From contig JAAOMT010000193.1 of NCBI GenBank assembly GCA_016748015.1, positions 124,001 through 188,000 of the forward strand: a stretch of 64,000 nt of DNA, given 5' to 3'. The notes under the pieces are model-generated. The model was not told the origin of the DNA. It worked only from the letters and a program-made list of their open reading frames with translations, and searched no databases. Made by a program: the position numbers and the translations under genes. This DNA comes from Geosiphon pyriformis uo1. Lineage: Eukaryota; Fungi; Glomeromycota. Below are positions 936 to 61,522 of the stretch, piece by piece; the stretch's first letter is position 1; every line of letters begins with the position of its first letter.

Positions 936-1493
936 AAATATACCAATTAATATGGCAAAGGAAGAAGTTATTGACAAAAAAAAATTATCTCCACCTATTA
1001 ATCAATTTTTATTCTGCCATATGACCAATATATACTTAATATAGAGAGAAAAATAAAAGATCAAACTCAGATTTTTGAGATAAAAACTACAATTTGTGAA
1101 TCAAAAAAAATTAGAATTACCAATCTTTATATACTGGCTAAAAACCACAAACACATCAAAATTCCTATATACAATACAACTAGAGACCTAATCAAAATAC
1201 CAAAAGAAACAACCATTGAATATTTAAGCACTAAAGTTAAGAATTAATTACCAAATATCATTTTAGATTTTCCACAACTGTGTGAATATATGGATATCAT
1301 ATTACAAGCAATATACAGACAAAAAAAATACTATTTGCTTCAATTCAAACAATTGAAACAAATAAACTTAGAAAAAATAACCAATGCCCAATTTGAAGAA
1401 TTACAGATTGAAATAATCTAAGTAATTCTCAAAAAAAAAGTTAGGAAATATAGGAGATCTTGACAGAGCTTAATATTAAAAAAGAACAAATAA

Positions 1494-3144: not shown

Positions 3145-3823
3145 TATTATGAGTTGGAGTAACAAGCTAATAGATAGCAAAGAAGAACAGGATTGTAGGA
3201 TGATAGAAATAATCAAAAGAAATTCAACTTCAAAGAGCAAATTAAATAAGTATGAATTCAATGTACAAGATCAATCTTATAAAATATTTCAGTCACTATA
3301 TTTTTCAAAAATAACTGGAGAATCTGAAGGTAGAGAAATAGTTCATACTATCAACAAATGATCATGCCTGGTATAATTTTATGCCTTACATCAGCACTTT
3401 TAGAATTCAATATCAGGTATTAGATGTATTCTTCAGTCATGTTTTATTCAATTGTCTTTAAATGCTACAATTACATGTTTCAGGAAAAGGGTAGGGAATG
3501 ACCAACAAGTAATTTTTTATCTTTAAAATGTTCAGATACTTGAAAATAGGAAAAAGGAAATTAGTGATAAAAGAATGATTGAGATGAAAGTTGTTATTTT
3601 ATTTATTTAATTTCCTTGATTTTTTCATGCTTTTCTACAGCTAAAAAATTCATCACTTATATAGTTATCAAAAGTGGTCAATGATTAGGTCAACAATTAG
3701 GTTAATGATCAGGTCAATGATCAGGTCAATGATCACTTTCTAAAAATAGAGTAGCTAATTTATGTGACATCAGTGGCTAATACATGTGATATTTAATAAG
3801 AAATATAAGTTTCAATCATAACA
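3145..3823 (-). repeat. C1 3' LTR
   Basis: T(G>A)TTATG...CATAACA; adjacent PPT (minus strand GGAGAGGATAA); homologous to 27698-28347. Confidence 0.9.
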
Positions 3824-4449
3824 TTATCCTCTCCAAAGAGATTGAGCTCCAGTAAAATCAAGCTATTTATAATGTAATCTATTTGAAAGGTTTTATCTAA
3901 CTCAAAGCTAACTAGTTTGTTGAAGTCTTTTGTGGATAAGGTATACAATACTTGAGGCAAAATGAGTTTTGTATCCAAGAGACCAAATCTTTGTATTAGA
4001 GTTTTGGCTCATCTGGCAATAGTTAAAACTCTTGGGATATTTAACTGTATAATGCCCAGAATTTCTGTCTGTATCTCTGAAGTTGTTTTCTTTATGAGTT
4101 TCATATCCTTTATGATTTCACCAAGGTGACCATAGAGTTCTAATTGCCTTCTATATAACAAGTTTTTGTCTATGGATAAGATTTTTTGAAGTGTTTTTTC
4201 AATTGTGCTGGAAGGTGGGAGTATAGTGGCTGTTATACTTTCTAACAGATATTTATCTATTTTGCTACCAATTTTTTCTCTTTCAGTAGTAGTTTTCTTT
4301 GGTCTGATAACAGTATGTGTTCCACTGCTATCAGTTATAGTGGTCTGTTTTCCAATAGTCAAAGTAACATTTGAACAGTTTTTGATCCAATACTTATGAA
4401 GAGTATAAAAGGCATTTTGAATGTTTTAATCCAGAAAATAATTGTTCAT
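3793..4449 (-). pseudogene. C1 ORF3, unknown helical protein downstream of integrase
   Basis: ATG at 4449; ORF pieces 4009..4362 and 3793..3978; motifs YGHLG…ARxAKTL…LYTLSTKDFNKL align with ORF3 of families A, B and D. Confidence 0.7.
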
Positions 4450-5979: not shown

Positions 5980-6771
5980 TGTTACAGAGGTGTTTTCTTG
6001 GTATATTTTAATTGTTGATCTTCCATTTTAATTGCAATCAGTCTCTTATGAGTTTTTTTATTTTATGTGTTAGATATTAATGATAATGTACTGAAGGTTT
6101 TCTCTTGATGTTGTGATGTAAGTCTTTTCTTTAATTCTAGTTGTTTTTATATGTTGTGTACTTCTTTCCAGAGGCTAATCTGAAATCTACCTGCTGTCTG
6201 GGGTCTTTTCTGAGGCTATTCTTGCAATTGTCTAATGTGTTTCTCTAATCTAGAAACATGGAATGTTAATGGCCTTTTCACAATTTCCCTAAGTATATGA
6301 TAAAGCTTTTTCAATTTAATTAGTAATCACGTGAATAATCTTAATCAGAGATTATTCTTTCAAAAGGTTCAAAAATGAAATAATAGTTTCATCCACTAGA
6401 GAGAGTATGTGAATTTTATTGTTAATCTTGTAATTGTGATGTTCATTCAATTTATTATTTTTATTAATTCTTTTTGAATAAGATTTTATTTAGATATTTG
6501 TTGCTTCTAGTTGAAGCTTGTTCTTCTTTATCATTAAAAACTATTGTATATATATATAATTATTGTTTTACAAAATAATGTTTTGTAATACTCTATTTCC
6601 ATTATTTCTAAATAGTGCTTGCTCCTTTTACACGATAATGCTTACTGCTATTGTAAAATAGTGCTTGCTGTTATTTGTAAATTATTTCTTTTTATAAATT
6701 GTTGCTGTGCTATTTCATGATTGGCTAATTTATATTATTTATAATTCTTATTAAATTCTTAAACTGTAACA
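5980..6771 (-). repeat. D1 3' LTR
   Basis: TGTTACAG...CTGTAACA termini, PPT GAAAGAAAGAGATAA adjacent; matches 22756-23535. Confidence 0.92.
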
Positions 6772-7085
6772 TTATCTCTTTCTTTCAAGATTGAGCTCTG
6801 TTGAAATTGAAGTTAATTTCTTTATTGAATTTTAAGTTGCTATAATAGTCCAATACTGTATTATTAACTTGTTGTAATTTTTGAAATTGTGAGTTGGTAA
6901 GTTATTCAATACTGTTGATTGTTATTATGTTCATGGTTGGATCCAGTAATACTTTGTGACAATTTTTCAAATGCTTTGAAAATTCCGTAAACTGCTTTTT
7001 GAATTGAATGTACTGTTGGTTTTTCCAATAAAACTTTCTAATTGTTAGATTGTTGCTTTGTCAAATACTCTAATTGATGGGTGAG
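6772..7085 (-). pseudogene. D1 ORF3, C-terminal remnant
   Basis: Translates to …GIFKAFEK/CHKVLLDPTMNIITINSIE*LTNSQFQKLQQVNNTVLDYY, homologous to family A ORF3 CKNVLQNPILQQMKIQYIGKLTELKFQQF…IFDYY. Confidence 0.7.
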
Positions 7086-7943: not shown

Positions 7944-8922
7944 TGTTACTGGAGGTTTTTGTCTCTTCTTAGCTCTTGTATGTTTGTTGTAGTGCTGTTA
8001 ATTCACGACTATAGGAAGTGTTTGAACCTCTGATAACTGAATTTTATCTTCAAATTATCTCCTATAATTTGAATGGCTGGGCTTATAAGTGGAATGGCCA
8101 ATTCTGTGTCAGTTATGTGTGTAGTTACGTTGTAGTAAATGTCAACTTTTTCCCAGGAATTGCTCATCTGGAAGCTCACTAAAAATGTGTAGTTACTTTG
8201 CTGTAAAAGTCAATTCTTCTACAGAAATCTCATTTGTAGGCTACCCTAATGATTGTAATAAGAAAAGAAAAATAAAAAGAAAAGAAATGTAAAAGAAATA
8301 GGTTTTTATCAAGAAAACGTTTTCTATTCAGGCCTGGAATCACTAACAATTTACTGAAATTAGTAGCTAATCAATTTCAAAATGTTAGTTGGGTTTTGAG
8401 GATTTTCTAAGTGCAATAATTAAAGAATTTGGTTTTTCGAATTTATTTGATATTTATTTCTTTTTGTGTGTGTAGGAATAGTTTTAAGTGATAAATCTAA
8501 AATAAGATATATTTTCTCAAAGAAAGAAGCTCTTTTTTTATACAACTTGTTATAACACTATTTCATGAACTTGAACTTTGCTTTTTTCTACAATTTTGCT
8601 GAACTAAAGATACATTTCGGCAAACTACAAGTTATTTCTGCGAACTATTAGATATTTCGGTAAACTATTAATTATTTCGGCAAATTTCTACAAATTTCAG
8701 CAAACTTTTGAATGTTACATATTTTGGGGTATTGCATGATTGATCATTGCAATTAGGTTACATTTGTGTTATGTACAAATTGAGTTATTAATTAAATGAT
8801 AATTTCGGACATTTTGCTAATATAATAAGTAATAATTTGAAATGATAATATATGCTAATTAATGATAAGAATTATAAAGATAATTTTATGCTAAATAATA
8901 TCTCTAATTTTGTCTGGTAACA
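7944..8922 (-). repeat. A1 3' LTR
   Basis: TGTTAC...GTAACA termini; direct repeat of 16836-17815. Confidence 0.95.
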
Positions 8923-9610
8923 TAACTTTCTTTTCAAGACTGAGCTCCATTAAAGTCCAAGTACTGTCTGTAATTTCCAGATAATAATCCAAAATTATTG
9001 AAGAAATTTGGTCTGAAAATTGTTGAAATTTCAGTTCTGTGAGCTTTCCAATATATTGAATCTTCAAAGGTTGTAAAATTGGATTTTGTAGGACGTTTTC
9101 ACAGGTGTGGAATAGGTCATAAAGTCTAAGAGCAGCTTTTAGTTTATAACAACTATTTGTAGGTCCAGCTGTTGTCTTGAATTTGTTGTAGAGTTGTTTC
9201 TAAATAGCTTTTTTTGTGAGGTTTGCTGCTGTAAGCTCCCGTTTTCGTTCATGAAGTGTTTTTCCAATGTAAAAATATCTATATATTGGAGTATAGTCAT
9301 AGTTTTCTTTATTAAGACACAGTTAAAGTTTTTGTTAAATAGTAGCATTTGGTGGAATACTAATAGGAGTGAGCATTAAGTTTTCTCTTAAAGCAAGCTT
9401 TAAAAGTTCTGGCAGATGAATTCCAGAATAACTTCTTGTGTTCTTCTTATATGGGTGATATTTTTATGAATTTGGGACTAAATTTGTAACTACTTCTGTT
9501 TGGGTATAATTAATGTGGTTTCCAGTAACAGTAATGGATAATTCGGGTATTGTTTTTAAAGCTAATATTAGTTTTTGGGATAATTGCTGAATGTTTTGAG
9601 GAATAGTCAT
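8905..9610 (-). pseudogene. A1 ORF3, unknown protein (~235 codons)
   Basis: ATG at 9608-9610 (MTIPQNIQQLSQKLILALK…), YFYIGKTL, RLYDLFHTC; reads through the PPT into the LTR. Confidence 0.75.
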
Positions 9611-22753: not shown

Positions 22754-22755
22754 AA

Positions 22756-28361: not shown

Positions 28362-29128
28362 CATTTATCCTGGTTTTTTTGGCTGATTTTGGCTATTGCT
28401 TCATACAATGTTCTGTTGAATCTTTTAACTAATTCATTTGTTTACAGATAGTATGGTAATGATAATAGTCTTTTGATTCTAAATCTTTGGCTTAATTCTG
28501 CTAATGTTCTATTTACAAAGTGAGTTTCTTGATCAAATAATAATTTTTTTGGACATCTGTATCAACAGATCAAATCCTAATGAATGAATTTGGCAATAGA
28601 TTCTGCATCTGCTCTTTGAATGGCTTTTGCTTCTGGTTATTTTGTAAGATAATCCATGGCTACTGCAATATATTTGTTGCTTTTGCTGTTAATTGTTAAT
28701 AATTTGACTAAGTCAATTCTAATATGATTAAATGGTTGTCCTACTTTGATTGGTCTTAATAATTCACTGAGTTTTGTTCCATCTTTTCTTTAACAAGCAT
28801 CACAATTTTGGACATATTGTATAATGTCCAGATACATTGATGGCCAATAGTATTTTTTTCTGATTTTTTTTATGGTTGCTTCTTTATGAAAATGTTCTGT
28901 TGTTGGATTTGAGTGCATTTTGAATAATATTGTCTCTTTTTCTGATTCTGTAATTACTCTGGTTGGTTGGTTTGGATCTTTTCTGTTTTTTTGGTAAAGT
29001 ATATTTTGGTAGTTGATAAAATATTTTGATTGTTGCTTTATGTTGTTTTGTTCCTTTTGGGATAATTTCTTCTTGAACAATTGGATATTTATATAATATT
29101 GGAGTTGTTGGTATTTTTGTATATTTAT
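28362..29128 (-). pseudogene. B1 integrase N-terminal and core part
   Basis: MHSNPTTEHFH…CDAC, IRIDLV, DQETHF, NELVKRFN. Confidence 0.88.
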
Positions 29129-29157
29129 ATTTTGTTATATTTTGGATTGAAATGTTT

Positions 29158-39392: not shown

Positions 39393-41044
39393 NNNNNNNN
39401 NNNNNNNNNNNNCTGAAGCTATACAAAAACAAATTCACAATAAATTCAAAACAGCAGCTGGACCAACAAATACTTACTACAAACTTAGAAAAACATTTAG
39501 ACTCTATGATTTATTTAACACTTGTGAAAACATCTTACAAAATACAATACTTTATTCAATGAAAATACAATACATTGGAAAGCTCACAAAACTGAAATTT
39601 CAACAATTTTCAGACCAAATTACTTTAATTATTTTGGATGATTATTTTAAAATTACAGATAGTGCTTGGACTTTGATAAAACTCAGTCTTAAGGAGAAAA
39701 TTATGTTACCAGAAGAATTTTAGTTATTAATTAACATGAAATTATCTTCATAATTCTTATTATTAATTAGCATATATTATTACCATTTTAATTATTACTT
39801 ATTATTTAATCAAATTATCAAATATTATTACTCAATTAATAATTCGATTTGTACCATAGAAATTAAGATAATCAAATTATACAATACTCTAAACCATTTA
39901 ATATAGTCAAAATTTGCCGAAATTAATAAAAATTGGCCAAAAAATTTAATAGTTCAGCAAAATAACTTGTAGTTCACTAAAATATATCTTTAGTTTACCA
40001 AAATTATAGCAAAAAAAAAGTACAAGTTTAAAGATTAGTACTATAACAAGTTGTATAAAAGAAGAGCTTCTCTCTTCAAGAAAATATATCTTATTATAGT
40101 ATTGTTACCGGAGGTTTTTGGTCTCTTTTCTTAAATGTTGTTGATGCTTGTTTGCTGTTTTATTCACGACTAGAGGAAGTAGTTGAACCTTCGATAACTG
40201 AATTTATCTTCAAATTATCTCCTATAATTTGAACCGCTGGACTTATAAGTGGAATGGCCGATTCCGTGCCAGTTACTTTATGTAGTTACGTTGTAGTAAA
40301 CATCAACTCTTTCCCAGGAATTGCTCGTCTGGAAGCTCACTAAAAATGTGTAGTTACTTTGCTGTGAAAGTCAACTCTTCTACAGGAATCTCGTCTGTAG
40401 GCTACCCAAATGATTATGATAAGAAAAGAAAGAGAAAAATAAAAGAAACGTAAAGAAATAGAATTTTGTCAAGGAAACGTTTTCTATCCAGGCCTGGAGT
40501 CACTAACAGATTACTGAAATTGGTAGCTAATCAATTTCAAAATGTTAGTTGTGTTGAGAGAATTTCAAGTGTAATAATCAAAGGATTTGGTTTTCGAATA
40601 TTTAATTTTTATTTGAGATATGTAAAAAAAGTGATTTGTTCTAATTAAGATACCTAAAGTAAGATACTATGGTAGGATATGAGAAGATACATTTTCTTGA
40701 AGAGAGAAGCTCTTCTTTTATACAACTTGTTGTAGTACTAGTCTTTGAACTTGCACTTTTTCTCTTTTCTAGAATTTCGGTGAACTAAAGATACATTTCG
40801 GCGAACTACAAGTTATTTCGCTGAACTATGAATTATTTCGGCCAATTTCCATTAATTTCGGCGAATTTTTGCTATGTTATATGGTTCAGGGTATTGTGTA
40901 AATTGATCATCTCAATTTCTATGGTCCAAATCGGGTTATTGATTAAATGATGATAATTGCTAATTTGATTAAATAATAAGTGAAATTCGAAATGATGCTA
41001 ATTAATGATAGGAATTATAAAGGAAATTTCATGCTAATTAATAG

Positions 41045-41356
41045 CTAAAATTTTACTGGTAACATAATCTCCTCCTTAAGACCGAGCTCCGTCGAAGTCC
41101 AAGCACTATCTGTGGTATTAAGATAGTAGTCAAAAATGATTGAAGTGATCTGGTCTGAAAATTGTTGAAATTTCAGTTCTGTGAGTTTTCCAATATACTG
41201 AATCTTCATTTGTTGAAGTATTGGGTTTTGTAGGACATTTTTGCAAGTGTTGAACAAATTATAGAGTCTAAAAGCTGCTCTAAGTTTGTAGCGAGTGTTT
41301 GTTGGTCCAGCTGCTGTCTTGAATTCATTATGAATTTGTTTTTGTATAGCTTCAGG
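41045..41356 (-). pseudogene. A2 ORF3 C-terminal part (least decayed copy)
   Basis: AIQKQIHNEFKTAAGPTNTRYKLRAAFRLYNLFNTCKNVLQNPILQQMKIQYIGKLTELKFQQF…ELGLKEEIMLPVKF*. Confidence 0.8.
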
Positions 41357-41406
41357 NNNNNNNNNNNNNNNNNNNNNNNNNNNNNNNNNNNNNNNNNNNN
41401 NNNNNN

Positions 41407-43879
41407 TTCATACCATCAGCAGTGACAATAACTGTTTGGGCAGGTCTATCCACATTCCGGTGGAGCTGTTGCATCAGTTGGTAAGTGATGATGCTTCCGG
41501 CGGATCCACTGTCTAAGATTAAGCGGATTTGTTTTCCTTCTACTTCAGCCTCCGTATACATAGCTGTAATTGCTTTTTGTTCATTGACAGCTGCATTGCT
41601 AAGCAAGAATGGTGATTCGTTTGCTTCAAATTCAAATGGGAATATATCTGAAAGGTTGGTGTTTTCAGCAATCTTTGCTGGTGGGATTGTTTGGTTGTTG
41701 GTAGAAGGGTTTTGTCTTGGTGCTGCAACTTCACCTTCAAAAAGTGCAGTTTGTTGAAAATTCTGTTCCTCTGGCAATGTTAAGTAACTTGGTTGTGTTT
41801 GGTAATGATTATGTCTCTGTTGAATCGGATTTCTGGGTACCAATTGATTGTTGGAGCTAGTTCTGTTGTTGTTGTTTTGAAAACGATTTTGTGGTGTGAA
41901 TTGATTTTGTTGAGTGATTCTCCTAGCAGGTACTTGGTATTGTTGAACCGGAGGTGGTTGTTGATATTGTGCAATTGGTGGAGGTTGTNNNNNNNNNNNN
42001 NNNNNNNNNNNNNNNNNNNNNNNNNNNNNNNNNNNNNNNNNNNNNNNNNNNNNNNNNNNNNNNNNNNNNNNNNNNNNNNNNNNNNNNNNNNNNNNNNNNN
42101 NNNNNNNNNNNNNNNNNNNNNNNNNNNNNNNNNNNNNNNNNNNNNNNNNNNNNNNNNNNNNNNNNNNNNNNNNNNNNNNNNNNNNNNNNNNNNNNNNNNN
42201 NNNNNNNNNNNNNNNNNNNNNNNNNNNNNNNNNNNNNNNNNNNNNNNNNNNNNNNNNNNNNNNNNNNNNNNNNNNNNNNNNNNNNNNNNNNNNNNNNNNN
42301 NNNNNNNNNNNNNNNNNNNNNNNNNNNNNNNNNNNNNNNNNNNNNNNNNNNNNNNNNNNNNNNGTTGATTATTCCTTTGCTGCTGGTCTCTTTGCAACTT
42401 CCTACAATCTCGTTTCCAATGTCCTGGAATTCCACAATAGTGGCAATTCTGGGGTTGACCAATGGGTGCTGATGAGAAGTTTCCTTGGTTCCGTCGTTGG
42501 GGTGGTTGATATCTTTGCGGTTGTTGCTGTGGTTGTTGTTGATTGGTGAAGTAGTTTTCAACTTTCTTGGTAAGCTGGTCAATTTTCTCTTCAGCTGCTG
42601 AGCTGGTTTCACCAATGGCAAGGTTAACAAGCTTTGTGCGGTTAGCTTCTTCCATAGCCATTTCGTAATTTTTCGCATGGCGAATGGCAGTAGCTAAATC
42701 TTCTAGGTTGTGTGGGCGAACTTTCTTGATCAGTTTGTCCTTTAGTCCAGCAATAAATTGATCCAAAATCTGAGCGTTGGAGTAATATTCATCGGTTTCC
42801 AATTGGCAAATTCTTCTGAGTAGTTTGTTGAACTTTCCAAGGTAGGTCATGACTGATTCTGATGGATCTTGCTTAATGTTTCAGAATCAGTTTCGGAGTG
42901 TGATAGAGGTGTTGTTGTCGGTGAACTGTTGAAGAAAAGCATCTTTGAATGCTTGCCAGTTTTCAAATGGTCCTTCCAAATTTTCGAACCATTCTCCGGC
43001 CGTTCCTTGGAGAAAGTAAGGAATTGCTTTGAGCATTCTGGCTGCATTCCATCCATTCGCATCTCCAGCTTTCGAAACTTTGTCAAGCCATTCTTGAGGA
43101 CTGGTATCGCTATCTTCACCAGTAAATTCGGGAATTTTTGCAATATAAGCAGTTGCCATTTCTTCGTTTTCAAGGTCTTCTGGTTCTTCCTGTTCTGATT
43201 CAGTTCCTTCGCTTTCTAGGTTCTCAGAATGATTACTTTGATTCTCTTGTAAGTAATCAAAAAGGTTGGTGCTAGTTGATATTGGTTCCTGCTGTTGAGT
43301 AGGATTCTTTGGTGACTGAAAATCTTCTATTCTTGAGAACCGGACAAGTGGTGAATCTGGTGTCTGTGGTTGAGCAAGTGAAGCAGGAAACGGTGTAAGG
43401 GATAGTGGTAGTTTGATATTGGTTCTTTGCTCTGGTGTTTGTAGATGTTTGACAGTTATCTTTGGAGTTTTTGGAGTATTGGGGGTGGTGCTGAAAAGTT
43501 GTTTCTGTTTCTGTTTGCCTTTATTGCTTGTTTCTGTCTCTGATTCGAAACCTAGAGAAAATTGTTGTGGGACTGGATATTTTTCTTCACAGTATTGGAT
43601 GATATTGAAATCAAGTTCTTGAAAGTAGGTGGCAATTGTTTCACTGTTGAGCTCCTCAGTATTTAGATGAGAATAGTGTAGTAAGTTGTTGTAGAGGTTG
43701 CTTTTGACTTCAGTAATATTGTAGTCTCCAAGTAGGTAGTTGTTGAATCGGTTTTCGATGTATTGGTATAATGATTTCTTAAATGCCTCAATTCCATCTT
43801 AGATGTTGAATCTTTGCTTGCAGTGAGTGTAAATCGACTGGTAGTACTCTAGAGTTGTTATGTCTGAAGCAGACGCCAC
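41407..43879 (-). pseudogene. gag: A2 Gag and protease N-terminal half
   Basis: MATAYIAKIPEFTG…EWLDKV, CHYCGIPGHWKRDC, intact LILDSGSAGS; only a few CGA>TGA or CAA>TAA stops. Confidence 0.92.
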
Positions 43880-45447
43880 TTTGAAGTTGTTGTTGCTGTG
43901 TTGTTTCCGTGAGAGAGCACCAAATGTTACCAGAGGTTTTTGGTCTCTTTTCTTAAATGTTGTTGATGCTTGTTTGCTGTTTTATTCACGACTAGAGGAA
44001 GTAGTTGAATCTTCGATAACTGAATTTATCTTCAAATTATCTCCTATAATTTGAACTGCTGGGCTTATAAGTAGAATGGCCAATTCCATGCCAGTTACTT
44101 TATGTAGTTACGTTGTAGTAAACGTCAACTCTTTCCCAGGAATTGCTCATCTGGAAGCTCACTAAAAATGTGTAGTTACTTTGCTGTGAAAGTCAACTCT
44201 TCTACAGGAATCTCGTCTGTAGGCTACCCAAATGATTATGATAAGAAAAGAAAGAGAAAAATAAAAGAAACGTAAAGAAATAGAATTTTGTCAAGGAAAC
44301 GTTTTCTATCCAGGCCTGGAGTCACTAACAGATTACTGAAATTGGTAGCTAATCAATTTCAAAATGTTAGTTGTGTTGAGAGAATTTCAAGTGTAATAAT
44401 CAAAGGATTTGGTTTTCGAATATTTAATTTTTATTTGAGATATGTAAAAAGTGATTTGTTCTAATTAAGATACCTAAAGTAAGATACTATGGTAGGATAT
44501 GAGAAGATACATTTTCTTGAAGAGAGAAGCTCTTCTTTTATACAACTTGTTGTAGTACTAGTCTTTGAACTTGCACTTTTTCTCTTTTCTAGAATTTCGG
44601 TGAACTAAAGATACATTTCGGCGAACTACAAGTTATTTCGCTGAACTATGAATTATTTCGGCCAATTTCCATTAATTTCGGCGAATTTTTGCTATGTTAT
44701 ATGGTTCAGGGTATTGTGTAAATTGATCATCTCAATTTCTATGGTCCAAATCGGGTTATTGATTAAATGATGATAATTGCTAATTTGATTAAATAATAAG
44801 TGAAATTCGAAACAATGCTAATTAATGATAGGAATTATAAAGGAAATTTCATGCTAATTAATAGCTAAAATTCTACTGGTAACAGTATCTTACTATAGTA
44901 TCTTAATCAGAACAAATTACTTTTACACATTTCAAATAAAAATTAAAATATTTGAAAAACCAAATCTTTTGATTATTACACTGAAATTTTTTCAACACAA
45001 CTAACATTTTGAAATTAATTAACTACCAATTTCAGTAATCTGTTAGTGACTCCAAGCCTAGATAGAAAACATTTCCCTTGACAAAATTTTATTTCTTTTA
45101 TATTTTTTTTATTTTTTCTTTCCTTTCTTATTATAATCATTAGAGTAGTCTACAGACAAAATTTTTGTAAAAGAGTTGACTTTTATAGCAAAGTAACTAC
45201 ACATTTTTAGTAAGCTTCCAGATAAGCAATTCCTAAGAAAAAGTTGATATTTACTATAACATAACTACATAAAGTAACTGGCAAGATATTGGTCATTTTA
45301 CTTATAAGCCCAGCAGTTTAAATTATAAGAGATAATTTAAAGATAAATTCAGTTATTGGGAGTTCAACTGCTTCCAGAAAACGTAAAATTAGCAACAAAC
45401 AAACATTAATAACATTCAAAAAAAGAGACCAAAAACCTCTAGTAACA

Positions 45448-47976
45448 ATGTTATACTTGGTGATAAAAACAGTTTTTTTTCTGCTTTCTGGATCTATTTC
45501 TACTTATCAGAATTTAGCAGTTAAGTCAATAGTTAAGAAAAAAGCAGCTCATTGAATTTGTTTAATATTGTATCAATTTTAGGAAGTGGATATATGTCTC
45601 TAATAGTGATGATATTTAATTGGTGATAATCAACACAAAAGTGTAGAGTTCTACCTTTTTTAAATACCACTACAACTAGAAAAGCTCATTTACTTTTGGT
45701 TTTTTGTATGAATTCAAGATTTTTCATTCAGGTTATCTCTTTCTTAATAAACTCATTATTGTACTAATTAGATTGATAAGGCTTTAAATAGATAGAGTAA
45801 GTTTCTCTGGTAGTAATAGTATGTTGTATCATATAGATTCATTCAAAAGTATTACTTTTTTTTAAAATAACTGGACTATTTCTAGCCAACAGATTTTCAA
45901 TGTCTATTTTTTTTTCTTTTGGGAAGATTTTTTTTGTTCTATTGCAAGTAATTAGACTTTAGGTGGTTTATTCTCAAAGGACTTTTGTACTTCTTTTATT
46001 TTTTCTTTGAATATCAAACTAATTGGTTTTTAATCTTTGTAATACATCAAACAGGACTTGCATTCATCACTAGGAGAATACAAAAATTTATTGCACCAGC
46101 ATCTGGCATAAAAACCATGCTATCAATAACTGTATTTTGCTTTTTTATCAGGTTTTCTATTGAAAATTCTTTTAAAGATATCATAATAGGACTAGTAGAT
46201 TAGCTTGCCATTTATCATGATTTCTTTTTTGTCAGCTTTAACATTGTTCAATGGCTTGTTGTTATTGGTAAAAATGATATAGGCAAGTTCAGCAGTTTTT
46301 TTTTATTCTTCTTAATCTTTTTTTTCATCACTTTTTTTATTCTTTGATTCATCTGATTGTTCTTCTTCTTGGTTTTGCTTGGATACTAAAAAAATTGTTC
46401 AATGATAGCATTTAACCACAATGGGCTATTTATCACATCTGATAGTTAGCTTACAAAGTTCATAGTCAAGTAGTGCTTTGGCTTTCTTGAGTTACTTATT
46501 GCCAACAATTATGGTGTACTCTTTTGTTTCAAATACTTCTATGTTAGTTTTAATGCTAATGCCATTAATGTGAACAAAAACAGCTTTGGCTATGCCCAGG
46601 CTTTTTTTTTTGTTACCATGTATATTGGTCATTGGTTTAGTTGAGGGTTTATTAATTTTTCTGTCAATTGCTTCAAGGAAATATTTGACAATAATGCTAA
46701 CAGATAATCTATTATTTAAAATCAGATCAATAAAGTAACCAGCCACTTGGGTTTTGCAAATTAGAGGAATAACATTGCTGTTGTTAATAAATTCAGCTTG
46801 GTAAGAGCACTTGTTGGTTTTTGGTGTCTTCTTCTTTGGGATTAAAGATTTACAAAGATCTTTCCTGAATTGTGAATAGATTATTAACTGGCCAAAAGTA
46901 ATGTGAGCTGAAGTTTTCATAAAATCTTTAACAATGGAATAAAAACCAGATTTTTGTACAATTTCTGAGAGTTCCAACTTTAGAAGATTTTTAAAAACTT
47001 TGGTTTTTAGTGACTTATTGTTATCAGCAGTTAATGTGAATGTTTTATTTGAATTCAGAACAAAATTAACCTTAGCTTTTTTTTTTTGTTGATTCAGAGA
47101 TATTGATTGCTAGTTCATCTATGTCATAATTAATATTAGTTAAGTTAAAAGCATAAAAAGAGTTTTCTTTTGATTGGCTTGTATTCTTACTCTTTGGAAA
47201 TGCACCTATTAGTTTAAAGGCTAATAAACAGTGGCTTCAACTAAAAGATCTTCTCCAAAGAAATTAATTTTGGCATAATTGGGTCTTTGATTGAAGACAT
47301 TGTTGTTGATAGTTCCATTGTTTTGATTGTTATTGTTTTTGGAAGCTGGAAGAGGCAGAAAAATATTGTTGTAATTTCTAGAGAAATGTTCAGTTAATTC
47401 ACTGTGATAACACACAGGTAGACCATAATTTTGTTGTCTTTGATAAGAGAGTTGCTGAGGCTGATTAAAATAGAGTTTAAATCTGGGTCTTTGGAGTTGT
47501 CAATTTTCTCTGACTGCTTGGACTAAGGGCTTTAATAACTGGATACAATTGGCTGTAAGTCTATTTATTAATTGTTCATTAGGATTTAGAGTTTAAGCAG
47601 TAAAAAAAATAGCAGCCATTTAAAAAGCAAAAGCCATAACAGAAGCAGAAACAAAAACTAGAAGTATAGATTTTAAGTGTATTCTTTGATTATCTTCTAT
47701 TTTTTGGGCAAGTTCAATAGTCATATCTATTGTGAGATTATTTTTCAGAGCCAAAAGAAACCAAAAAGCATATAAGAGATCAGTTTTCAATCTTTTTGTA
47801 AAAGAGTAGATTTTCTGCTTTTTTGTCTAATTTCTTTTAGAGTCTACCCATTTGATTAACTTTCTGATTGCTTTAGTATATTTAGTTACAATTTTATCAA
47901 GACTTTGAGTTTTTTTTTTAATTTTATGTGCCATTTAGATATTAAGATAAGAGTTCTAAATTTTATTTTAAATTGG
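45448..47976 (-). mobile_element. Family C fragment C2 (gag C-terminal half, protease, RT N-terminus)
   Basis: Paralogous to C1 24335-26870; both ends cut by LTR insertions. Confidence 0.88.
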
Positions 47977-48833: not shown

Positions 48834-49625
48834 TATTATAAGTAATTATTTGGAGTCTCCAATCAAATAACAAACCCATAACTTGGTGCTAATAGCTGAT
48901 ACAATTGTTATTATCTAAAAATTTTAGTTGAGTTGTTTGTATAATAAACAGAGGTTTAATGGTGTGCAATTCTTTTGTGATGAGTTTCCCAATTTTTTTT
49001 TAGCTTGGTGGCCAGTTTATTTTGGCAGTTATGTTTTTTTGATAAGCTATTTAATTCTTACTCTGTACTTTTCTATTTAGGTCTTTTACCAGACTATTTA
49101 TAACATCAATAATTTATTGCTTAATCTTTAATCAATTAATATACAATCATAAAAGAGAAAATAAATAAAATAAATAAATAAAAAAAATAAAGAGAATAAA
49201 TCAAGGCAATTAAAATTAATATCTTATCAATAGCTATGATTAAAAACTATTGTTTCAGCATAATTAAGTATTTGATACTATCAACATGAAGTGCTAATAA
49301 TAAAGAGTGGATTGAGGTAGCAAATAATTATTTATTGATATTTGTAAATTAAAAGATTTTTTAGATAAAATCTAAACTGAGAGATCTGCTTTTTCTGCTT
49401 CTAATACTATTGTTATATATACATATTTGAGATTCCTTAATTTTTCTATTTTCTCTACCAAAAATCCTGAAATTTTTGGAATCCTGAAATTTCTAATATA
49501 AGAATCCTGTAATTTTTGAAATCTTGTAATTCCTCTAAGAAGAAATCTGGAATTCCATATTTTACCATATTTACTTCTGATTGGCTAATATATACTACTA
49601 TAATTCCTATTTACTATGAGTAATA
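48834..49625 (-). repeat. B3 3' LTR
   Basis: Decayed termini TATTAT...GTAATA, family B sequence, adjacent PPT. Confidence 0.85.
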
Positions 49626-50961
49626 TTATCCTTTTTTTTTAATATTGAGCTCTATTAAGATCTCTGAACTCTTTTAATTCTCTTTTTTTGATCATTTCTT
49701 GGACTTTTTTTTTAAAAATTACTTGTGTTTTTTTGGTTTGTAATTTTTTAAATTGGGCATTAGTCATTTTACCTATTTAATTAGTGGTAACTGTGTTTAT
49801 TACTGTATTAAATAGTATTTCTGATCAGTCTTGAAATCCAGCATGTAATCAATAAATAGTTTATGCTTGTATTGTTAGATTGTTTTTTCATATAAATTGC
49901 TTAAGTTGTTGTACTATTGTTGTGTCAAATAATCATTTTGTTTTATCCATATATAAGTTCTAAATATTCAAATGTTGTCTTAAGTGGAAATAACAAAAGT
50001 TTCTTGGAAATTGTTGTATCCACTGTTACTGGAGGTTTTTGGTCTCTTTTTTTGAATTTTGTTAATATTTGTTTGTTGCTAATTTTACGTTTTTTGGAAG
50101 CAGTTGAATTCCCAATAACTGAATTTATCTTTAAATTATCTCTTATAATTTGAACTGCTGGGCTTATAAGTAAAATGACCAATATCTTGCCAGTTACTTT
50201 ATGTAGTTATGTTATAGTAAATATCAACTTTTTCTTAGGAATTGCTTATCTGGAAGCTTACTAAAAATGTGTAGTTACTTTGCTATAAAAGTCAACTCTT
50301 TTACAAAAATTTTGTTTGTAGACTACTCTAATGATTATAATAAGAAAGGAAAGAAAAAATAAAAAAAAATAAAAGAAATAAAATTTTGTCAAGGGAAACG
50401 TTTTCTATCTAGGCTTGGAGTCACTAACAGATTACTGAAATTGGTAGTTAATTAATTTCAAAATGTTAGTTGTGTTGAAAAAATTTCAGTGTAATAATCA
50501 AAAGATTTGGTTTTTCAAATATTTTAATTTTTATTTGAAATGTGTAAAAGTAATTTGTTCTGATTAAGATACTATAGTAAGATACTATAATAAGATATAT
50601 TTTCTTGAAGAGAGAAGCTCTTCTTTTATACAACTTGTTATAGTACTAATCTTTAAACTTGTACTTTTTTTTTTGCTATAATTTTGGTAAACTAAAGATA
50701 TATTTTAGTGAACTACAAGTTATTTTGCTAAACTATTAATTATTTTGGCCAATTTTTATTAATTTCGGCAAATTTTGACTATATTAAATGGTTTAGAGTA
50801 TTGTATAATTTGATTATCTTAATTTCTATGGTACAAATCGAATTATTAATTGAGTAATAATATTTGATAATTTGATTAAATAATAAGTAATAATTAAAAT
50901 GGTAATAATATATGCTAATTAATAATAAGAATTATGAAGATAATTTCATGTTAATTAATAA

Positions 50962-51667
50962 CTAAAATTCTTCTGGTAACATAATTTTCTCCTTAAGACT
51001 GAGTTTTATCAAAGTCCAAGCACTATCTGTAATTTTAAAATAATCATCCAAAATAATTAAAGTAATTTGGTCTGAAAATTGTTGAAATTTCAGTTTTGTG
51101 AGCTTTCCAATGTATTGTATTTTCATTGAATAAAGTATTGTATTTTGTAAGATGTTTTCACAAGTGTTAAATAAATCATAGAGTCTAAATGTTTTTCTAA
51201 GTTTGTAGTAAGTATTTGTTGGTCCAGCTGCTGTTTTGAATTTATTGTGAATTTGTTTTTGTATAGCTTCAGAGGTAATGTTGGTTGCTTTAAGTTCCAG
51301 TTTTCGTTCATAAAGTGTTTTTTCAATATGAAAATATCTGTGTATAAGAGTATGTTTATTGTTCTGTTTATTAAGAAATAGTACAAGTTTTTGTTGGATT
51401 GTGGCATTTGGTAAAATGTTAATAAGGGCAAATAAAAAGTTTTCTTTTAGTGCTTGCTTCAAAAGTTCTGGTAGTTAATTTCCAGAGTGACTTCTTGTTT
51501 TTCTTCTATAAGAGTGATAATTTTGAGAATTATTTTCTATTGGTGTTGTAGTTTTTTTTGAGTGTAATTAATTGACTTCTATTAATTGTTATAGATAAAT
51601 TAGGAAGTGTTTTTAAGGCTAACATTAATTTTTGGAATATTTGTTGGATATTTCAGAAAATAATCAT
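50962..51667 (-). pseudogene. A3 ORF3, unknown protein
   Basis: ATG at 51665-51667; includes ORF 50962..51462 (…HRYFHIEKTLYERKLEL…RLYDLFNTC…). Confidence 0.78.
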
Positions 51668-51829
51668 AATAAAAAAATGATTAACTAAAAAAAAAAATAA
51701 AGAAAATTATTTTTGGGTATGAAGTTTTTATTTATTTTTGGATTTAGGTGTTTCTTGTAATTATTTACTATTTTTGTTTTTTGTGTATTATAAAAAAAAT
51801 TATTGTAAAAATATGTTGAATTAAGTATT

Positions 51830-53206
51830 TAAGTTTGGTTGTAGTTCTATTATAATTATTGGTTATAAATTTTGGGAAATATCTTTAGGATTGATTAAAA
51901 AGAAATGTATACCAATTTGTGGAATTAATAGTTTAGAATTGTTTCTAAAATAATAGTGTTTTAATTAATCTCCATGTGCAACTTTTGCTAATACTTTGTC
52001 ATTAAGTCTTAATTTATATAATCTATAACTTAGAATTTCGTGAATATAAAATGATCTATTCTATTTATGTTTAAATTTTTCACTTCATTGTTTTTCAGCC
52101 TTAGTTTTGTGTAAGAGAACTTTATTTCCAACTTTAAATTTGTTGGTAACTGGTGGCAGTTTATTGTCATGTTTTTCTTTTTGTAGAACTTAAGAGTATT
52201 TAATATGAGTGGCTGCTATGTGTCTTTTTCTTTTTAATGTACTAAAGAGAGTGTAAGCTCTTTTTTGAAGTGTTTCTTGAAAGTTTTTTTCATTAATTGG
52301 TTGCACTGGGTATGTTTTTACTGTGAAATTAATTGGTAATGTTGCTGTTTTTCTATAAATAAGATTAAATAGTGTGTGTTTTATAGTATCTTGTTTTAGT
52401 GTTTTGTATGCTAGTAATATTGATAGAATAAAAATATCCTATTTTTGTTCAAAATCAGTTGAGACTTTGGCTAAAGATTAACACAATGTTCTGTTGAAAT
52501 GTTCTACTAGTCTATTTGTTTGAGGGTAATAAAATAATAATAAAGGTTTTTTGATATTGAATCATTCACAAATTTTTTGTATTAAATTGTTCACAAAATG
52601 TGTTTTTTGATCAGATAAGAGTTCAATTGGGCATTTATATCTACAAATAATGTCTTTATAGATAAAATTTGTTATTGATTTTGCATCTGCTTTTTGGATG
52701 GCTCTAGCTTCAAACCATTTGGTAAAATAATCTACTGTAATTACAATATAATAATTTCTTTAGATTATAATAGGTAATAGTCCGACTAAATCAATTCCAA
52801 CTCTGTCAAAAGGTTGTCCAACTTTGATTGAATTTAAAGGTTCTGTGGGGTGAGTTTCTTCTTTTTTTTGACAACTATTACAAGATTTTACATATTATCG
52901 AATGTCTTTTTGCATGTAGAGCCAAAATTAATGTTCAAAAGTTTTTTGGATTGTTTTATTTCTTCCCAAGTGTGCTGAAAAAAAATCTGTGTACATCTTG
53001 TATAGAATTGTTTCTTTTTTATTTTCTTGTACTAATCTGAATGGTTGATTTGAGTTTCTGCAATTTTTATAATAAATTTTGTTGTCATGTAAGAAATATT
53101 GTTTTAATTGGTATTGTAATTGATGTTTTTTACTTGAAGACCAATTTTCTAATATAGTAAAAGTCTCCAAATAGTTTTTAATGTTGTTGTAATTTCTGAA
53201 ATCTAT
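51830..53206 (-). pseudogene. A3 integrase (stand-alone ORF)
   Basis: VGIDLVG, LLSDQ, NRLVEHFN; start decayed to ATA at 53204-53206. Confidence 0.88.
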
Positions 53207-53263
53207 TGTTGTTTTGTTATTCTGTTGATAGATTGATAAGTTATGATAGAATTGTTGTTGGTG

Positions 53264-56200
53264 TTAATTTTGTCTCATTCTTGAGAGACTGTCAACATTG
53301 GTGTGTTGTTTTCTTGGTTTGTAATGTACAATATATTTGTAGTTTGTTAGAAAGTTATTCCATCAAGACTGTTTAGTACTTTGTTCAGTTTTCTTTTTGT
53401 TGAGCCATTTGAGACCAATATTGTCAGTTATGATATTAAATTTTTTTCTATTCTTCAAATATTATTAAAAGTGTTTAAGAGCCCAAATAACTGCAGCAGC
53501 TTCTAATTCAGTTAAGCCATATTTGAGTTCTGTTGGTTTGAGTGTTCTATTGGCATAAGTAATGACTTGTTCCTGGCTATTTTCATCTAATTGTGATAGG
53601 ACGACACCAAATGCTGTGTGTAAAGCATCAGTGGCTAGTTGAAACCATTTGTTAAAGTTTAAGTGAGCAAAAACTGGTGCTGTTGTCAATTTTGTCTTGA
53701 GGGTTTCAAAAGCTTTCTGTTGTTTTTCAGTTCATTAGTATGGTATGTTTTTGTTGATAAAATAATTAAATAGTTTGGCAATTTCTGAGAATTCTTTAAT
53801 AAATTTCCAATAGTAAGAGGCTAATTCTATAAATTCTCATAGCTCTGTGGTGTTTTTGAGAGTTTGAAAGTTTTTGACAGCACTAATAGTTCCTGGATTT
53901 GGTTTGACTCTATCTTCACTAACAATATATCCAAGAAAAATTAAATTTGTTTTTCCAAAGTGACATTTCTCAATGTTCAATTTTAATCTTGCTTTTTGTA
54001 ATTATTAAAAAACTTTGTGCAGATAGATGAGATAAGCTTCAAAGCTTGATGAATACACATTAGTATCATTATGATAGACAACTACTAATTGCCATAAGAG
54101 TCCTTTATATACAACATTCATGAGTTGTTGGAATGTTGCTGGTGCATTGTAGAGTTCAAAAGGCATAATATTGAATTCATAGTTTTTTTCTTGGGTAAAT
54201 GCTGTTTTGGGTCGATTTTTTGGATCTATTTCGACTTGTCAGTATTCACTTTCTAAGTCTAAAGTTGAGAAGAACTTAGCTTTTCTTAAAGCATTTAATA
54301 TGTCATCAATTCTTGGAAAAGAATAGACATCTCCAATTGTCATATTGTTTAGTTGACAATACTTAACACAAAATCTGATTTTTCCATTTTTTTTTTAACC
54401 AGAACTACTGATAAGGCCCATAGACTTTTTGATGATTAAATCAATCTGTTATTGAGCATTCTTTGAACCTCTTTTCTGATAAATTAGTGGCTGGCAGGTG
54501 GAACTTGATAGGCTTGTTGTCATTTTGGTGGAGCATCTCTTGTGTGAATCTAATGTTAAACAATATCAGTTTTTCCAAGATCATTGTTGTTTTTTGCTAT
54601 TTGCAAATTCAGCTATTAGTTGTGTCAATTGTTTTTGTTATTAGGGTTCTAAGAGACTTATGTTAATTTAAGAAAGTTTTTCTTCTAAAAAGTTGTAGCT
54701 TTTAGTAATAGAAATAATGTTTGGATTGGGAAATAGGGTATGTCTTATAATTTCAATAAAATTAGAAACAGTTTGAGGGTTTTTATTTTGAAAGATGTTG
54801 CTATGTATAATTCTAATTTCTAATTTATTTAATAAGACAATAAGATAATTGTTGGAGTTGTAAAATATAACTCAAAATTTCTTTATTCTTTTAGGAATAT
54901 AAACATTTGGGATTAAAATTTTATGCTTTAAACAGATTTGTTTATTGGATTCAAAGATTTGTTGGGTAGTAGTGGGTTTTGAGCAGGTGTAAATTTTGTG
55001 ATGTTCTCGAAAAAATAAAATAGTAATTGGTTAAGAAAGTTGAAAAATCTGGTGAGATTCATTCTGTGTATTAAGAGTTATGTTTATTAGAACTGTGAAT
55101 TATCTAGTTGAACCAAAATCTTGAGTTTCTCTTTTACTTTTTCTCAATTTTTTTCTGTTGTTAACTAATTGTAATTCGAAATGTTGATTAAAGGTAGGTA
55201 AATTGCTTGAACAATTTTTCAGCATGTTCAATCCTAAATAATTTGTCTGTTTTATTCTGTAACATAATGGTAATGTTTTCAGTATATCATGTATCTATAA
55301 CTCTTTTTTTGACATTGATTTCTTTGTTTGTCAATGATGATCAAGAAGCAATTTGTATCATTGCTTCTGGTGGTATTTTAAGAGCAATTTTGAGGTTGAT
55401 TTTGGTTAAGGATTTTGGTTGAAGAACTAAAGTGTCTTTGCCAGAATATCTGAGATTATATTCTGCATCCAATTCATGAGCTTTTTTTGGTTTTATTCTT
55501 TGTCTATTGTTGTCAAAGTATTTGAATTGTATAGCAGACTGGTTTTCAATAAGATAGATTGATATTGTTGCAATTTTTTTCTTTGTTTTAGGTTTCCCAA
55601 ATTCAATTTTTTTCTGGTTATTTTCACTGGGCAGAGAAATACTAAGAGCATAGTATTTTGGACACTATTTGTCATTACAAAACATGATGTATTTTTTACA
55701 CAATTGAATGTTTATTTGCTCTAATTATCGAATTTGAACTTTTTGGATTGAATAAGTGTGACTTGCAATTTGGTGGTATGTTTCTACTTTATCTTCATAA
55801 TTGAATTCGGCTAATTCTATAATGTATTCAATATATTTAGCTTTTTTTATTTGGTGAATATTTTCTTGTGTGGCTCTATTAATTAAAGCTATTGCTAGAT
55901 CAAAAATTTTTTTAGCATCATAAAGATAGTGGTAAAGTTTATTGATAACACTGTTGTATGTTATATCAAAAGGTGCTCCTCTTCTGACTTTTTCTGAAAT
56001 TGATAGGACATATTGGCAGGTTTGATTACATACTTCTCCTCTCATTACAACATTAATCCAGTTGTATTTTTTTAGTAGCATATTTTTACATGTAAGGCAA
56101 AAGTGTTGTCTTATTTTTTACTTCTATTAAAATATTCAAATCGTTTTCTATGGCATGCTTTGCAAAAATAGCAGATGTGAGTTTCATATTTCTTTTCTGG

Positions 56201-58835
56201 AAAAATACATGCTCCCATTGATGAAAGTTTCATTTTACAATCTTTACATTTAAGTAAGATATAAAGTAGTTGTTTCTATGATTTTGGTGTAGAATATCTA
56301 ACTACATTCTATCCTCTGGTCTTCTTAAAGATTTTTTGTTCTGTTTTTTTAGTCTAATTAGATGTTAATCCAAGAGCCATAAAGGTTTTAGTAATTAGTA
56401 GTTTTTTCTTCTCTTCAAATTCGAATACTGGGGTTTTCTTAGATTTTTTATTAAAAGTACCACAAGTAGCAGGTACTCTGGTGTATTGTCTTTAGTATGA
56501 AATTTTCAATTTTGGGTTTCTCAATCTAAATTTGCATTGGCCTTGAGAAGTTAATTATTTCTGATGAGAGCTTAGTATTGGGATGCATCTATGACTAGAA
56601 CTTTGACTGAAATGGTAATTTTATCAATGGTAAATAAGAAATTCTCAATTTCTCTTACTGGAGTTTTTTCATGCCATCAGCTGTAACAATTACTGTTTAA
56701 GCTGGTTTGTCAACATTTTTTTCAAGCTGTTGCATTAATTGATAGGTAATAATGCTTCTGGCAAATCCACTGTTTAGAATTAAGGAGATTTGTTTTTTTT
56801 CTACTTTAGCTTTAGTATACATAGCAGTAATTGCTTTTTGTTTATTAACTGCTGCATTGTTAAGCAAGAATGGTAATTTATTTGCTTCAAATTTGAATGG
56901 AAATATATCTAAAAGATTGGCATTCTGAGCAATTTGTGTTAATAGAATAGTATTGTTGAAAGGGTTTGATCTTGGTGCTGCAACTTCACTTTTAGAAAAT
57001 GCAGTTTGTTGAAAATCTGATTTTTCTGGAATTGTATGATAACTGAATTGAATGTGGTAGTAATTGGGTCTTTGCTGACCAGAATTTCAGAGAACCAACT
57101 GGTTGTTTGGATTAATTTTGGAATGTAAATTGGTTTTGTTAAACCAATCTTTGAGCAAATACTTGATATTGTTGTATAGGTGGCTGTTGCTACTGTTAAA
57201 TTGGTAAAAGTTGTTAATATTGTTGCTGTGGAGAAGGTTGATAATATCTGTTTTGCTGTTGGGGTTTTGAGAAATAGTAAACTGATAGTGGAGACTGATA
57301 ATGAGATTGCTATATTAAAGAGTAATTTTGATTGCTCCTGTTTTGTTGGTCTCTTTGTAGTTTTTTGCAGTTTTGTTTTCAATATCCTGAGATCTCATAA
57401 TAGTAACAACTTTGGTTTTAACTGTTTGATAATAATGAGTAGTTGGTTTGGTTTCATCATTGGAGTGGCTAATATTTTTGTGTTTGTTGTTACTGTTGTT
57501 GGTTGGTAAAATAGTTTTCAATCTTCTTTGTAAGTTGGTCAATTTTTTTTTTAGCTGTTGAGCTGGTTTTTTCAATAGCAAAATTCACAAGTTTGGTATA
57601 GTTTGCTTCTTCTATTGTCATTTCATAGTTTTTTGCATGTCTAATGGCTGTTGCTAAATCTTCTGGGACATGTGGACAAACTTTCTTGATCAACTTGTCT
57701 TTTAATTCTGCTATAAACTGATCCAAAATCTGGGCATTGGAATAGTATTTATTGGTTTCCAATTGTCAAATTTGTTGAAGAAGTTTGTTGAATCTCTCAA
57801 GATAGATCATAACAGTTTCAGATGTTTTTTGTTTGATATTGCAAAAGCAATTGTAGAGAGTAATAGAGATGTTGTTGTTAGTAAATTATTGTAGGAAAGC
57901 ATTTTTGAATGCTTGCCAGTTTTCAAATAGTTCTTCTAAGTTTTCAAACCATTTTTCTGCAGTTCTTTAAAAAAAGTATGAAATTGTTTTGAGCATTTTT
58001 GTTGCATTTCATTCATTTGTATCTTCTGCTTTTTGAATTTTGTCAAGCCATTCTTAAGGGCTGGTATTATTATTTTTATCAGTGAATTTTAGAATTTTTG
58101 CAATATAAGCAGTTGCCATTTTTTTTCATTTTCTGTAGTTTCTTTTTGTTCTGATTTAGTTTCTTCACTTTCCAAGTTCTCTGAATAATTACTTTTGTTT
58201 TCTTGTAAGTAATCAATAATATTGGTGCTAGTTAATATTGGTTTCTGTTGTTGAGTAGAACTTTTAAGTAACTAAAAATCTTCTGGTCTGGAGAAATAGA
58301 TAAGTAATAAACTTGGTGTTTGTGGTTGAGCAAGTGAAATTAGAAATGGTATGATAAAAAGTGGTAATTTGACACTGGTTTCTTGTTTAGGTGTTTGCAA
58401 GTGTTTAGCAGCTGTTTTTGGTAATATTGGAGTGTTTGGAGTGGTTCTTGAATATTGTTTTACTTTTTATTTGCTTTTATTGCTTGTTTCTGTTTCTAAT
58501 TCAAAGTTAAAAAAGTATTTGGACTGTACTGAGTAGTTTTTTTCACAATACTGAATAATGTTAAAATTAAGTTCTTGAAAATAGGTGGCAAAAGTTTTAC
58601 TGTTCAGGTCTTCTGTTTCCAATTGTAAATAATGCAATAAATTATTGTAGAGGTTGTTTTTAACTTCTGAAATGTTGTAGTTTCCAAAAAAATAATTGTT
58701 GATACAGTTTTCAATGTATTGGTATACTGATTTTTTAACAACTTCAATTCCGTCTGGAATGTTAAATTTTTGCTTGCAATGAGTGTAAATTAACTGATAA
58801 TACTCTAGAGTTGTTGTGTCTAGTGTGGTTACCAC
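53264..58835 (-). pseudogene. pol: A3 Gag-PR-multiCys-dUTPase-RT-RNase H polyprotein remnant
   Basis: Paralogous to A1 11165-16790; ends SLSRMRQN*. Confidence 0.88.
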
Positions 58836-59856
58836 TTTGAATTTGTTGTTGCTGTGTTATTTCTGTAGAAGAGCACTAAATATTACCAGAGGTTTTTGGT
58901 CTTTTCTTGAATGTTGTTAATGTTTGTCTGTTGCAAATTTCACATTTTCTGAAAGCAGTTGAATCTCCAATAACTGAATTTATCTTCAAATTATCTCTTA
59001 TAATTTGAACTGCTGGGTTTATAAGTGGAATAACTAATTTTTTGCCAGTTACTTTATGTAGTTACATTGTAGTAAATGTCAACTCTTTTCTAGAAATTGC
59101 TTATCTGGAAGCTTATTAAAAATGCGTAGTTATTTTGCTGTAAAAGTCAACTCTTCTACAGAAATCTTGTCTGTGGACTGCCCTAATGATTATAATAAAA
59201 AAGGAAAAGAAAAATAAAAAAAATGTAAAAGAAATAGAATTTTGTCAAGAGAGACATTTTCTATCCAGGCCTGGAGTCACTAACAGATTACTGGAATTGG
59301 TAGCTAATCAATTTCAAAATGTTAGTTGTGTTGAGGGAATTTCAAGTATAATAATCAAAAAATTTGGTTTTTCAAATATTTAATTTTTATTTGAAATGTA
59401 TAAAAAATGATTTGTTCTAATTAAGATATCTAAAGTAAGATACTATGATAAAATACTATGATAAGATACATTTTCTTGAAAAAAAAAGCTTTTCTTTTAT
59501 ACAACTTGTTATAATACTAGTTTTTGAACCTGCACTTTTCTCTTTGCTATAATTTTGGTGAACTAAAGATATATTTCAGTAAACTACAAGTTACTTCGCT
59601 AAACTATTGATTATTTCGACCAATTTTTATTAATTTCGGCAAATTTTGACTATATTAAATGGTTCAGGATATTGTGTAATTTGATAATCTTAATTTTTAT
59701 AGTACAAATTGGATTATTAATTGAGTAATGATATTTGATAATTTGATTAAATAGTAAATAATAATCAAAATGGTAATAATATATGCTAATTAATAATAGA
59801 AATTATGAGGATAATTTTATGCTAATTAATGACTAAAATTTTACTGGTAACACCAC

Positions 59857-60135
59857 CAATGTCACGTTTTTATTGTCAATTCTTGATATAGTACACTTTT
59901 TGTTTGTATTTCTATTGCCATTTTTACTTTTGTTATTATTTTGTCAATAGTGTTTTCTGGTTTTTTTGTTCTTCATGTTGAAGTTTTTTCTTTGTATTTT
60001 TATATCTAATAGTTTGTTGATTAATAATATTTTTTATATTTTGTTGTTAAATTAGTTAAAAAAGTTGTTGTGCCAATATGTATATCTTGTCAGTAATTTT
60101 TATTTTCTTTTTATTGCTCTTGTTATGTATACCAT
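59857..60135 (-). pseudogene. B3 ORF3 N-terminal part (C-terminal part at 49626-50023)
   Basis: ATG at 60133-60135, 24 nt after the integrase stop; the other half encodes YFHLRQHL and IGKMTNAQFKKLQ. Confidence 0.65.
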
Positions 60136-61492: not shown

Positions 61493-61522
61493 TTTTTGTT
61501 ATATTTTTGGGTTGGAATAGTT

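Follow-up and report, generated by a model that had tools for sequence, protein, structure and literature searches.

Sense-oriented additional open reading frames between pol and the 3' LTR (aORF-3S) are a known class of LTR retrotransposon gene, and those described in the accessible part of the survey are env-like, some with transmembrane domains (PMC7264820). Gypsy-like elements that combine a dUTPase with a non-env ORF3 have been reported from bdelloids, where, in the available text, ORF3 codes for a GDSL esterase, a DEDDy exonuclease or env (PMC5408684). Among Ty3/gypsy accessory proteins, CERV of the C. elegans element Cer1 is nuclear and needed for Cer1 expression, and the accessible portion of that report describes a spliced mRNA, H, M and G domains and a GTPase-like fold (PMC10309623). 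Maize Grande GENE23, which is antisense (PMC7264820), and foamy virus Tas, which is retroviral (PMC13220597), are further 3' accessory genes, given in the available excerpts as having their own promoters and nuclear, regulatory products.

The dUTPase-bearing Ty3/gypsy elements of the Glomeromycotina fungus Geosiphon pyriformis carry a gene, here ORF3, that invites comparison with each of these systems. ORF3 lies on the same strand after pol, occurs in many copies and is conserved by selection, as is characteristic of sense additional ORFs. As far as the description of the aORF-3S is accessible, it lies in the same place and orientation as these, is likewise carried by most copies and is conserved about as well as the element's other genes, but is soluble, basic and predicted to be helical, overlaps the polypurine tract (PPT) and LTR, and comes from a Glomeromycotina host. 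The bdelloid elements are similar in pairing a dUTPase with a non-env ORF3, but in our Pfam search the Geosiphon protein has no enzyme match. Our searches showed no similarity to CERV, which also differs in its spliced mRNA and domains as described. Its likeness to GENE23 and Tas is one of description, with no sequence relationship found. Our literature searches, which fell short of most subscription journals, returned no paper describing the family. Non-env gypsy ORF3s are already a known class, and ORF3 is a real accessory protein family of this kind that, as far as these searches reach, is undescribed.

The window analyzed here, a stretch of 64,000 nucleotides, is AT-rich and CpG-depleted (CpG observed/expected 0.17), and is composed of nested LTR retrotransposons lying mostly on the - strand (Table 1). 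By Pfam and tblastn, the coding domains follow the Ty3/gypsy order of Gag, zinc knuckle (zf-CCHC), protease, dUTPase, RT/RNase H and integrase, and the elements show the other hallmarks of this group, namely TG...CA LTR pairs, target site duplications (TSDs), a TTTGGTG-type primer binding site and a PPT. In a self-comparison of the window, the LTR pairs of elements A1, A2, A3, C and D are 87.6-98.8% identical, with 4-bp target duplications in all three A copies; the 3' LTR of A2 is 88.7% identical to its 5' LTR (58883-59852; TSD CCAC). Transitions make up ~91-95% of the differences between paired LTRs (A1, A2, C and D), mostly in CA/CT context, and this bias, together with the CpG depletion, is a strong cytosine-directed decay of repeats. 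Since the paired-LTR differences are almost all transitions, we attribute the many stops in the window copies to this decay. We note that an inverted stretch on the + strand (39413-40102 and 44884-45450), into which A3 inserted (TSD GTAT), is 98-99.4% identical to the 3' end of A2 (51272-50021), despite the much lower identity between A2's own LTRs; this stretch adjoins an N gap, and is either a segmental duplication or an assembly artefact.

Table 1. Positions of elements, ORF3 copies and associated features in the window and, where stated, on metagenome contig L001.
Feature	Position	Strand	Remarks
Element A1	7944-17815	-	self-comparison
Element A2	50024-59852	-	self-comparison
Element A3	40103-44884	-	self-comparison; young, LTRs 98.8% identical
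Element C	3147-28351		self-comparison
Element D	5980-23535		self-comparison
A2 3' LTR	50024..50981	-	starts TGTTACC within final ORF3 codons
A2 CTC-AGTCTT motif and PPT	50982..51005	-	within ORF3 reading frame
A2 integrase	51822..53191	-	tblastn with L001 integrase, 49% identity
A2 RT/RNase H	53270-54046	-	frame separate from integrase
RNase H-integrase junctions	window 11118-11171, 53191-53270, 5788-5860, 61492-61529, 29113-29164; L001 774-799
GAGCTC-type motif sites	window 8922-8960, 3827-3860, 6773-6800, 49620-49650; L001 3091-3118
ORF3, A2 (focal)	50962..51667	-	broken; P0058/P0069 subfamily
ORF3, A1	8891..9610	-	one frame, 4 internal stops
ORF3 3' part, A3	41045..41356	-	remainder in N gap
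Extra partial ORF3	39413..39720	+	inverted stretch, 99.4% identical to 51272-50582
ORF3, C	3793..4449	-	2 internal stops; 218 aa when intact
ORF3 3' remnant, D	6764..7077	-	5' part and integrase missing
ORF3 3' part, B	49627..50022	-	55% identity to P0289
ORF3 5' part, B	59793..60135	-	parted from 3' part by A2 insertion
B-type ORF3 tail	1368..1490	+	E 4e-4 to P0289

The gene order of these elements is Gag-protease-dUTPase-RT-RNase H, followed by a separate integrase frame and by ORF3, which runs through the PPT into the 3' LTR; judged by their reading frames, the elements are three-cistron. A stop codon closes RNase H both in L001 and in those window copies that were examined, and integrase then occupies its own frame after a spacer of 24-47 bases, which in A1 and L001 is G-poor and CAA-rich, with integrase having its own ATG. 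This separate frame suggests that integrase may be translated by reinitiation or internal initiation. The gap between integrase and ORF3 is 25-316 bases, and no AG occurs within 60 bases upstream of the ORF3 ATG in A1 or L001, so that an env-like splice acceptor at its start seems less likely than expression of ORF3 from a subgenomic RNA or by internal initiation.

A first-pass annotation of this DNA had placed a shared ORF between integrase and the 3' LTR of each family, with the focal copy at 50962-51667. A position downstream of integrase holds for A1, A2, A3, C and B, but not for D, where integrase is absent. The focal copy is no longer an open frame, being interrupted by a frameshift near 51560-51540 and by stops at 51655 and 51477. 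The A1 copy is 88% identical to intact 239-aa proteins, and the B copy is split by the A2 insertion (TSD CCAC); a proposed B-type tail near 1375-1490 is real, matches over 1368-1448, and lies on the + strand. In D, RNase H ends at 7108 and ORF3 resumes at 7077 with only about its 3' 40%. We note that a single deletion removed integrase and the ORF3 5' part of D, yet its LTRs are 91% identical; D may be a non-autonomous derivative.

Contrary to the initial description, ORF3 does not end before the 3' LTR. The ORF3 frame of A, C and L001 crosses a GAGCTC-type motif and the PPT, and stops 6-11 codons into the LTR, which begins at 8922 in A1 (ORF3 codon 230) and at 3827 in C (codon 208). This overlap resembles that of HIV nef with the PPT and U3. 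The B frame stops at the motif (RAQY-stop), as it does in the intact proteins P0288 and P0289. The motif, of the type GAGCTC-[AG]-x-TCTT and directly upstream of the PPT, is common to all families (A, B, C, D and L001), falls in one ORF3 frame in A, C and L001 and in another in B, and is likely a cis element of reverse transcription. Because the frame runs through the shared motif and PPT, ORF3 C-termini are alike partly from DNA constraint; the PPT/LTR-overlapping tail was excluded from the tests of selection and of C homology below.

Between the A1 and A2 subfamilies, ORF3 has a dN/dS of 0.23 (0.15-0.35) over 207 codons. For comparison, the value is 0.29 for the C-terminus of integrase and 0.59-0.68 for the LTR, translated in each of three frames, while frame shifting yields 0.46 and 1.51. 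Differing sites, a count robust to the transition bias, comprise 65/382 0-fold and 22/55 4-fold positions (p 2e-4), the corresponding comparison for transversions only giving p 8e-4, and the LTR shows no comparable 0-fold/4-fold difference. ORF3 is therefore a real gene under purifying selection.

Searches for protein relatives at E<=0.001 retained 194 of 357 candidates for family A and 129 of 402 for family C, and among the matches listed (120 for A and 120 for C) all are G. pyriformis proteins, which makes this fungus very likely the source of the window. Intact copies number in the dozens, with lengths of 218-244 aa; among the 120 listed for each family, the commonest A lengths are 221 aa (26) and 239 aa (23), and 20 C proteins have 218 aa. 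Many G. pyriformis "hypothetical protein" gene models (P0003-P0312) are ORF3 copies, some of them fused to unrelated transposon pieces.

The absence of a transmembrane stretch, already proposed from the window, extends to all 79 intact proteins, with a Kyte-Doolittle 19-mer maximum below 1.9 in 53/53 A and 26/26 C (values of at least 1.6 occur in 0/53 and 4/26, respectively), and, with regard to a possible signal peptide, this hydropathy scan shows no hydrophobic core reaching 1.6 in any of the 53 A proteins. Of the motifs put forward as shared between families, Y-x-H-[IL]-G (19/53 A, 7/26 C; 43/53 and 18/26 when relaxed to Y-x-x-[ILV]-G) and A-x-R-x3-4-L (46/53 A, 17/26 C) do recur in both A and C, but I-x-x-[LM]-T-x3-F-x2-[LF] is found in 49/53 A and 0/26 C proteins. 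The PY-containing basic motif noted in family A, in the PY-NLS form [R/H/K]-x2-5-PY, is kept in A (23/53 copies), in D, in both metagenome lineages (P0275 and P0277) and in P0010, within a low-confidence linker (segment pLDDT <50); its counterpart in B is PW, and C lacks the motif.

A joint A+C alignment was searched as a profile against 1.84 billion representatives, where C matches by construction. This gave 54 matches, the 7 weakest of which, when looked up, were 5 Geosiphon proteins, including family D, and the 2 metagenome proteins. A third search gave 19 matches among 1,890 candidates and added intact B-type proteins. ORF3 identity among A, B, D and the two metagenome lineages is 21-37%, and when a profile is built from A, D and the metagenome proteins, the window B piece scores 66 bits with it, where 299 scored shuffles reach at most 7.3; by these sequence comparisons the five lineages are clearly homologous. 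Furthermore, on L001 an intact ORF3 of 230 aa, with a matching PPT/LTR overlap, accompanies RT/RNase H and a separate integrase frame, and the gene order is therefore present in another, divergent source. Trees of RT and of ORF3 (7 sequences each) both recover the B+D split and differ in the placement of A and L001, with weak support; these small trees are compatible with vertical inheritance.

The single family first envisaged across A, B, C and D thus stands for A, B and D, while for C the profile and global comparisons diverge. Profile comparison of C with the other families is not significant, with a probability of 0.2-0.5% and a score of 2.6 bits where shuffles reach up to 8.9. In contrast, global alignment without the PPT tail, against the A/B/D/metagenome set, gives a summed z of 5.2-6.3, which 0/300 shuffles reach in each case, with controls at 1.5-1.8 (reversed) and -1.6 to 0.4 (eight unrelated element proteins), although shared amphipathic patterns can inflate this z. 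For that reason we go no further than to call the C ORF3 probably a distant homologue of the others. In ESM Atlas features, the top matches of the ORF3 core are unnamed Mucoromycota clusters at 0.94 (172 features) and 0.93, which hints at a wider fungal ORF3 family. The dN/dS, the hydropathy profile, the cross-family homology and the structure prediction that follows together bear out the proposal of a conserved, selected, non-env, predicted-helical accessory gene.

The predicted structure comprises an N-terminal helix and beta-hairpin, a disordered basic PY linker and a four-helix core, the last with fair prediction confidence. At E<=0.001, Foldseek matches ORF3 to nothing in BFVD or PDB, and on these models it is a soluble, predicted-helical protein of no named family. 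The core has no clear fold match, helix-turn-helix DNA-binding proteins of the ParB/KorB type being at most candidates. The resemblance to DUF1016_N (PF17761) raised in the first-pass annotation finds weak support. In Pfam, 2/24 members give E 0.05-0.12 (best 14.1 bits), these being the only two at E<=1, and all 24 stay below the 32.8 bits of the gathering threshold; with 10 YhcG-like N-termini, hhalign gives a probability of 3.3% and P 0.013, just above 100/100 column shuffles; and the ESM-feature match is 0.85. None of these leads is significant alone, and the Pfam and hhalign results are not independent. DUF1016_N is the best, if non-significant, lead for the fold of ORF3. The likeness lies in the helix order and, over 60 columns, in YF-x-IG ~ YW-x-IG, GKTN ~ GKGF and RLY-x-x-F ~ R-x-FY. 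ORF3 differs from this YhcG-like N-terminal domain in falling far under the Pfam cut-off, in having an extra N-terminal module and a eukaryotic retroelement context, and in lacking the nuclease domain that follows.

Taking these results into account, a nuclear nucleic-acid binder is the best reading of ORF3, because the protein is soluble and basic, with a PY-type flexible linker and an HTH-like turn followed by a basic helix. We tentatively favor, with a little less than even confidence, a role at the LTR of its own element, either activating or anti-silencing. Such a protein would enter the nucleus through its PY or basic linker and bind nucleic acid through a conserved turn, G-K-[TN]-N, and the basic helix after it, which align with the GKGF...R-x-F-Y segment of DUF1016_N. 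Binding to the element's own DNA, most likely the LTR, would then promote transcription or block silencing, with LTR DNA as the target and activation as the sign both drawn by analogy with the 3' accessory genes of other retroelements. A more specific version, in which a retrovirus-like three-cistron element encodes an HTH-type protein, distantly akin to the bacterial DUF1016/YhcG N-terminal domain and with a eukaryotic PY nuclear signal, as its transactivator or anti-silencing factor, we consider doubtful. Also unlikely in our estimation is action on the element's RNA, either by exporting unspliced genomic RNA in the manner of Rev or CERV or as a TAV-like reinitiation factor for integrase. 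The elements are polycistronic, with integrase in its own frame after the RNase H stop, a basic PY-motif protein would fit RNA binders equally, and there are precedents, as far as their accessible descriptions go, in CERV of Cer1 (PMC10309623) and CaMV TAV (PMC5902531). However, neither by sequence nor by fold did the Pfam and Foldseek searches match ORF3 to CERV, Rev or TAV, CERV has a different architecture with its H, M and G domains in the available account (PMC10309623), and DUF1016_N, the sole lead to a family, occurs joined to a PD-(D/E)XK nuclease.

A partner of the integration complex, whether integrase chaperone, nuclear-import adaptor or target-site tether, appears less probable still, as ORF3 diverges much faster between families (21-37% identity) than RT/RNase H (39-55%). 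The ESM-feature match to the closterovirus coat protein (PF01785; 0.93, 147/256 features) would fit a coat- or nucleocapsid-like particle or movement protein spreading the element between nuclei of the coenocytic fungus, but the unnamed Mucoromycota clusters score above it, the closterovirus coat family has no Pfam match at E<=1 in the 24 members, and the Foldseek searches were equally negative, which leaves this quite improbable. Finally, ORF3 occupies the position expected of env, and its C-terminal EL-x-L-x-E-E-x-x-M-L coincides with the DNA motif and PPT common to all families, as might be expected were it a non-coding by-product of that conserved region. However, selection and homology were measured without the overlapping tail, or within the core, and the lack of a transmembrane stretch in 79/79 proteins indicates that ORF3 is not env; an env-like membrane protein or non-coding by-product is thus very hard to credit. 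Both readings are largely refuted, by the hydropathy and by the purifying selection.

The usual view is that gag and pol suffice for fungal LTR retrotransposons. That a soluble accessory gene is under selection and persists across lineages with no more than 21-37% identity implies instead a required, uncharacterised step in their life cycle. It also means that hundreds of G. pyriformis "hypothetical proteins" are transposon ORF3 and not fungal genes. LTR elements make up 41.2% of the G. pyriformis genome, according to the accessible part of its description (PMC11952901). Were ORF3 an activator or silencing antagonist, it would offer a testable reason for this LTR expansion despite a decay of the copies that proceeds almost only by transitions, and a three-cistron element with a DUF1016-like transactivator, if true, could help account for LTR expansion in Archaeosporales genomes.
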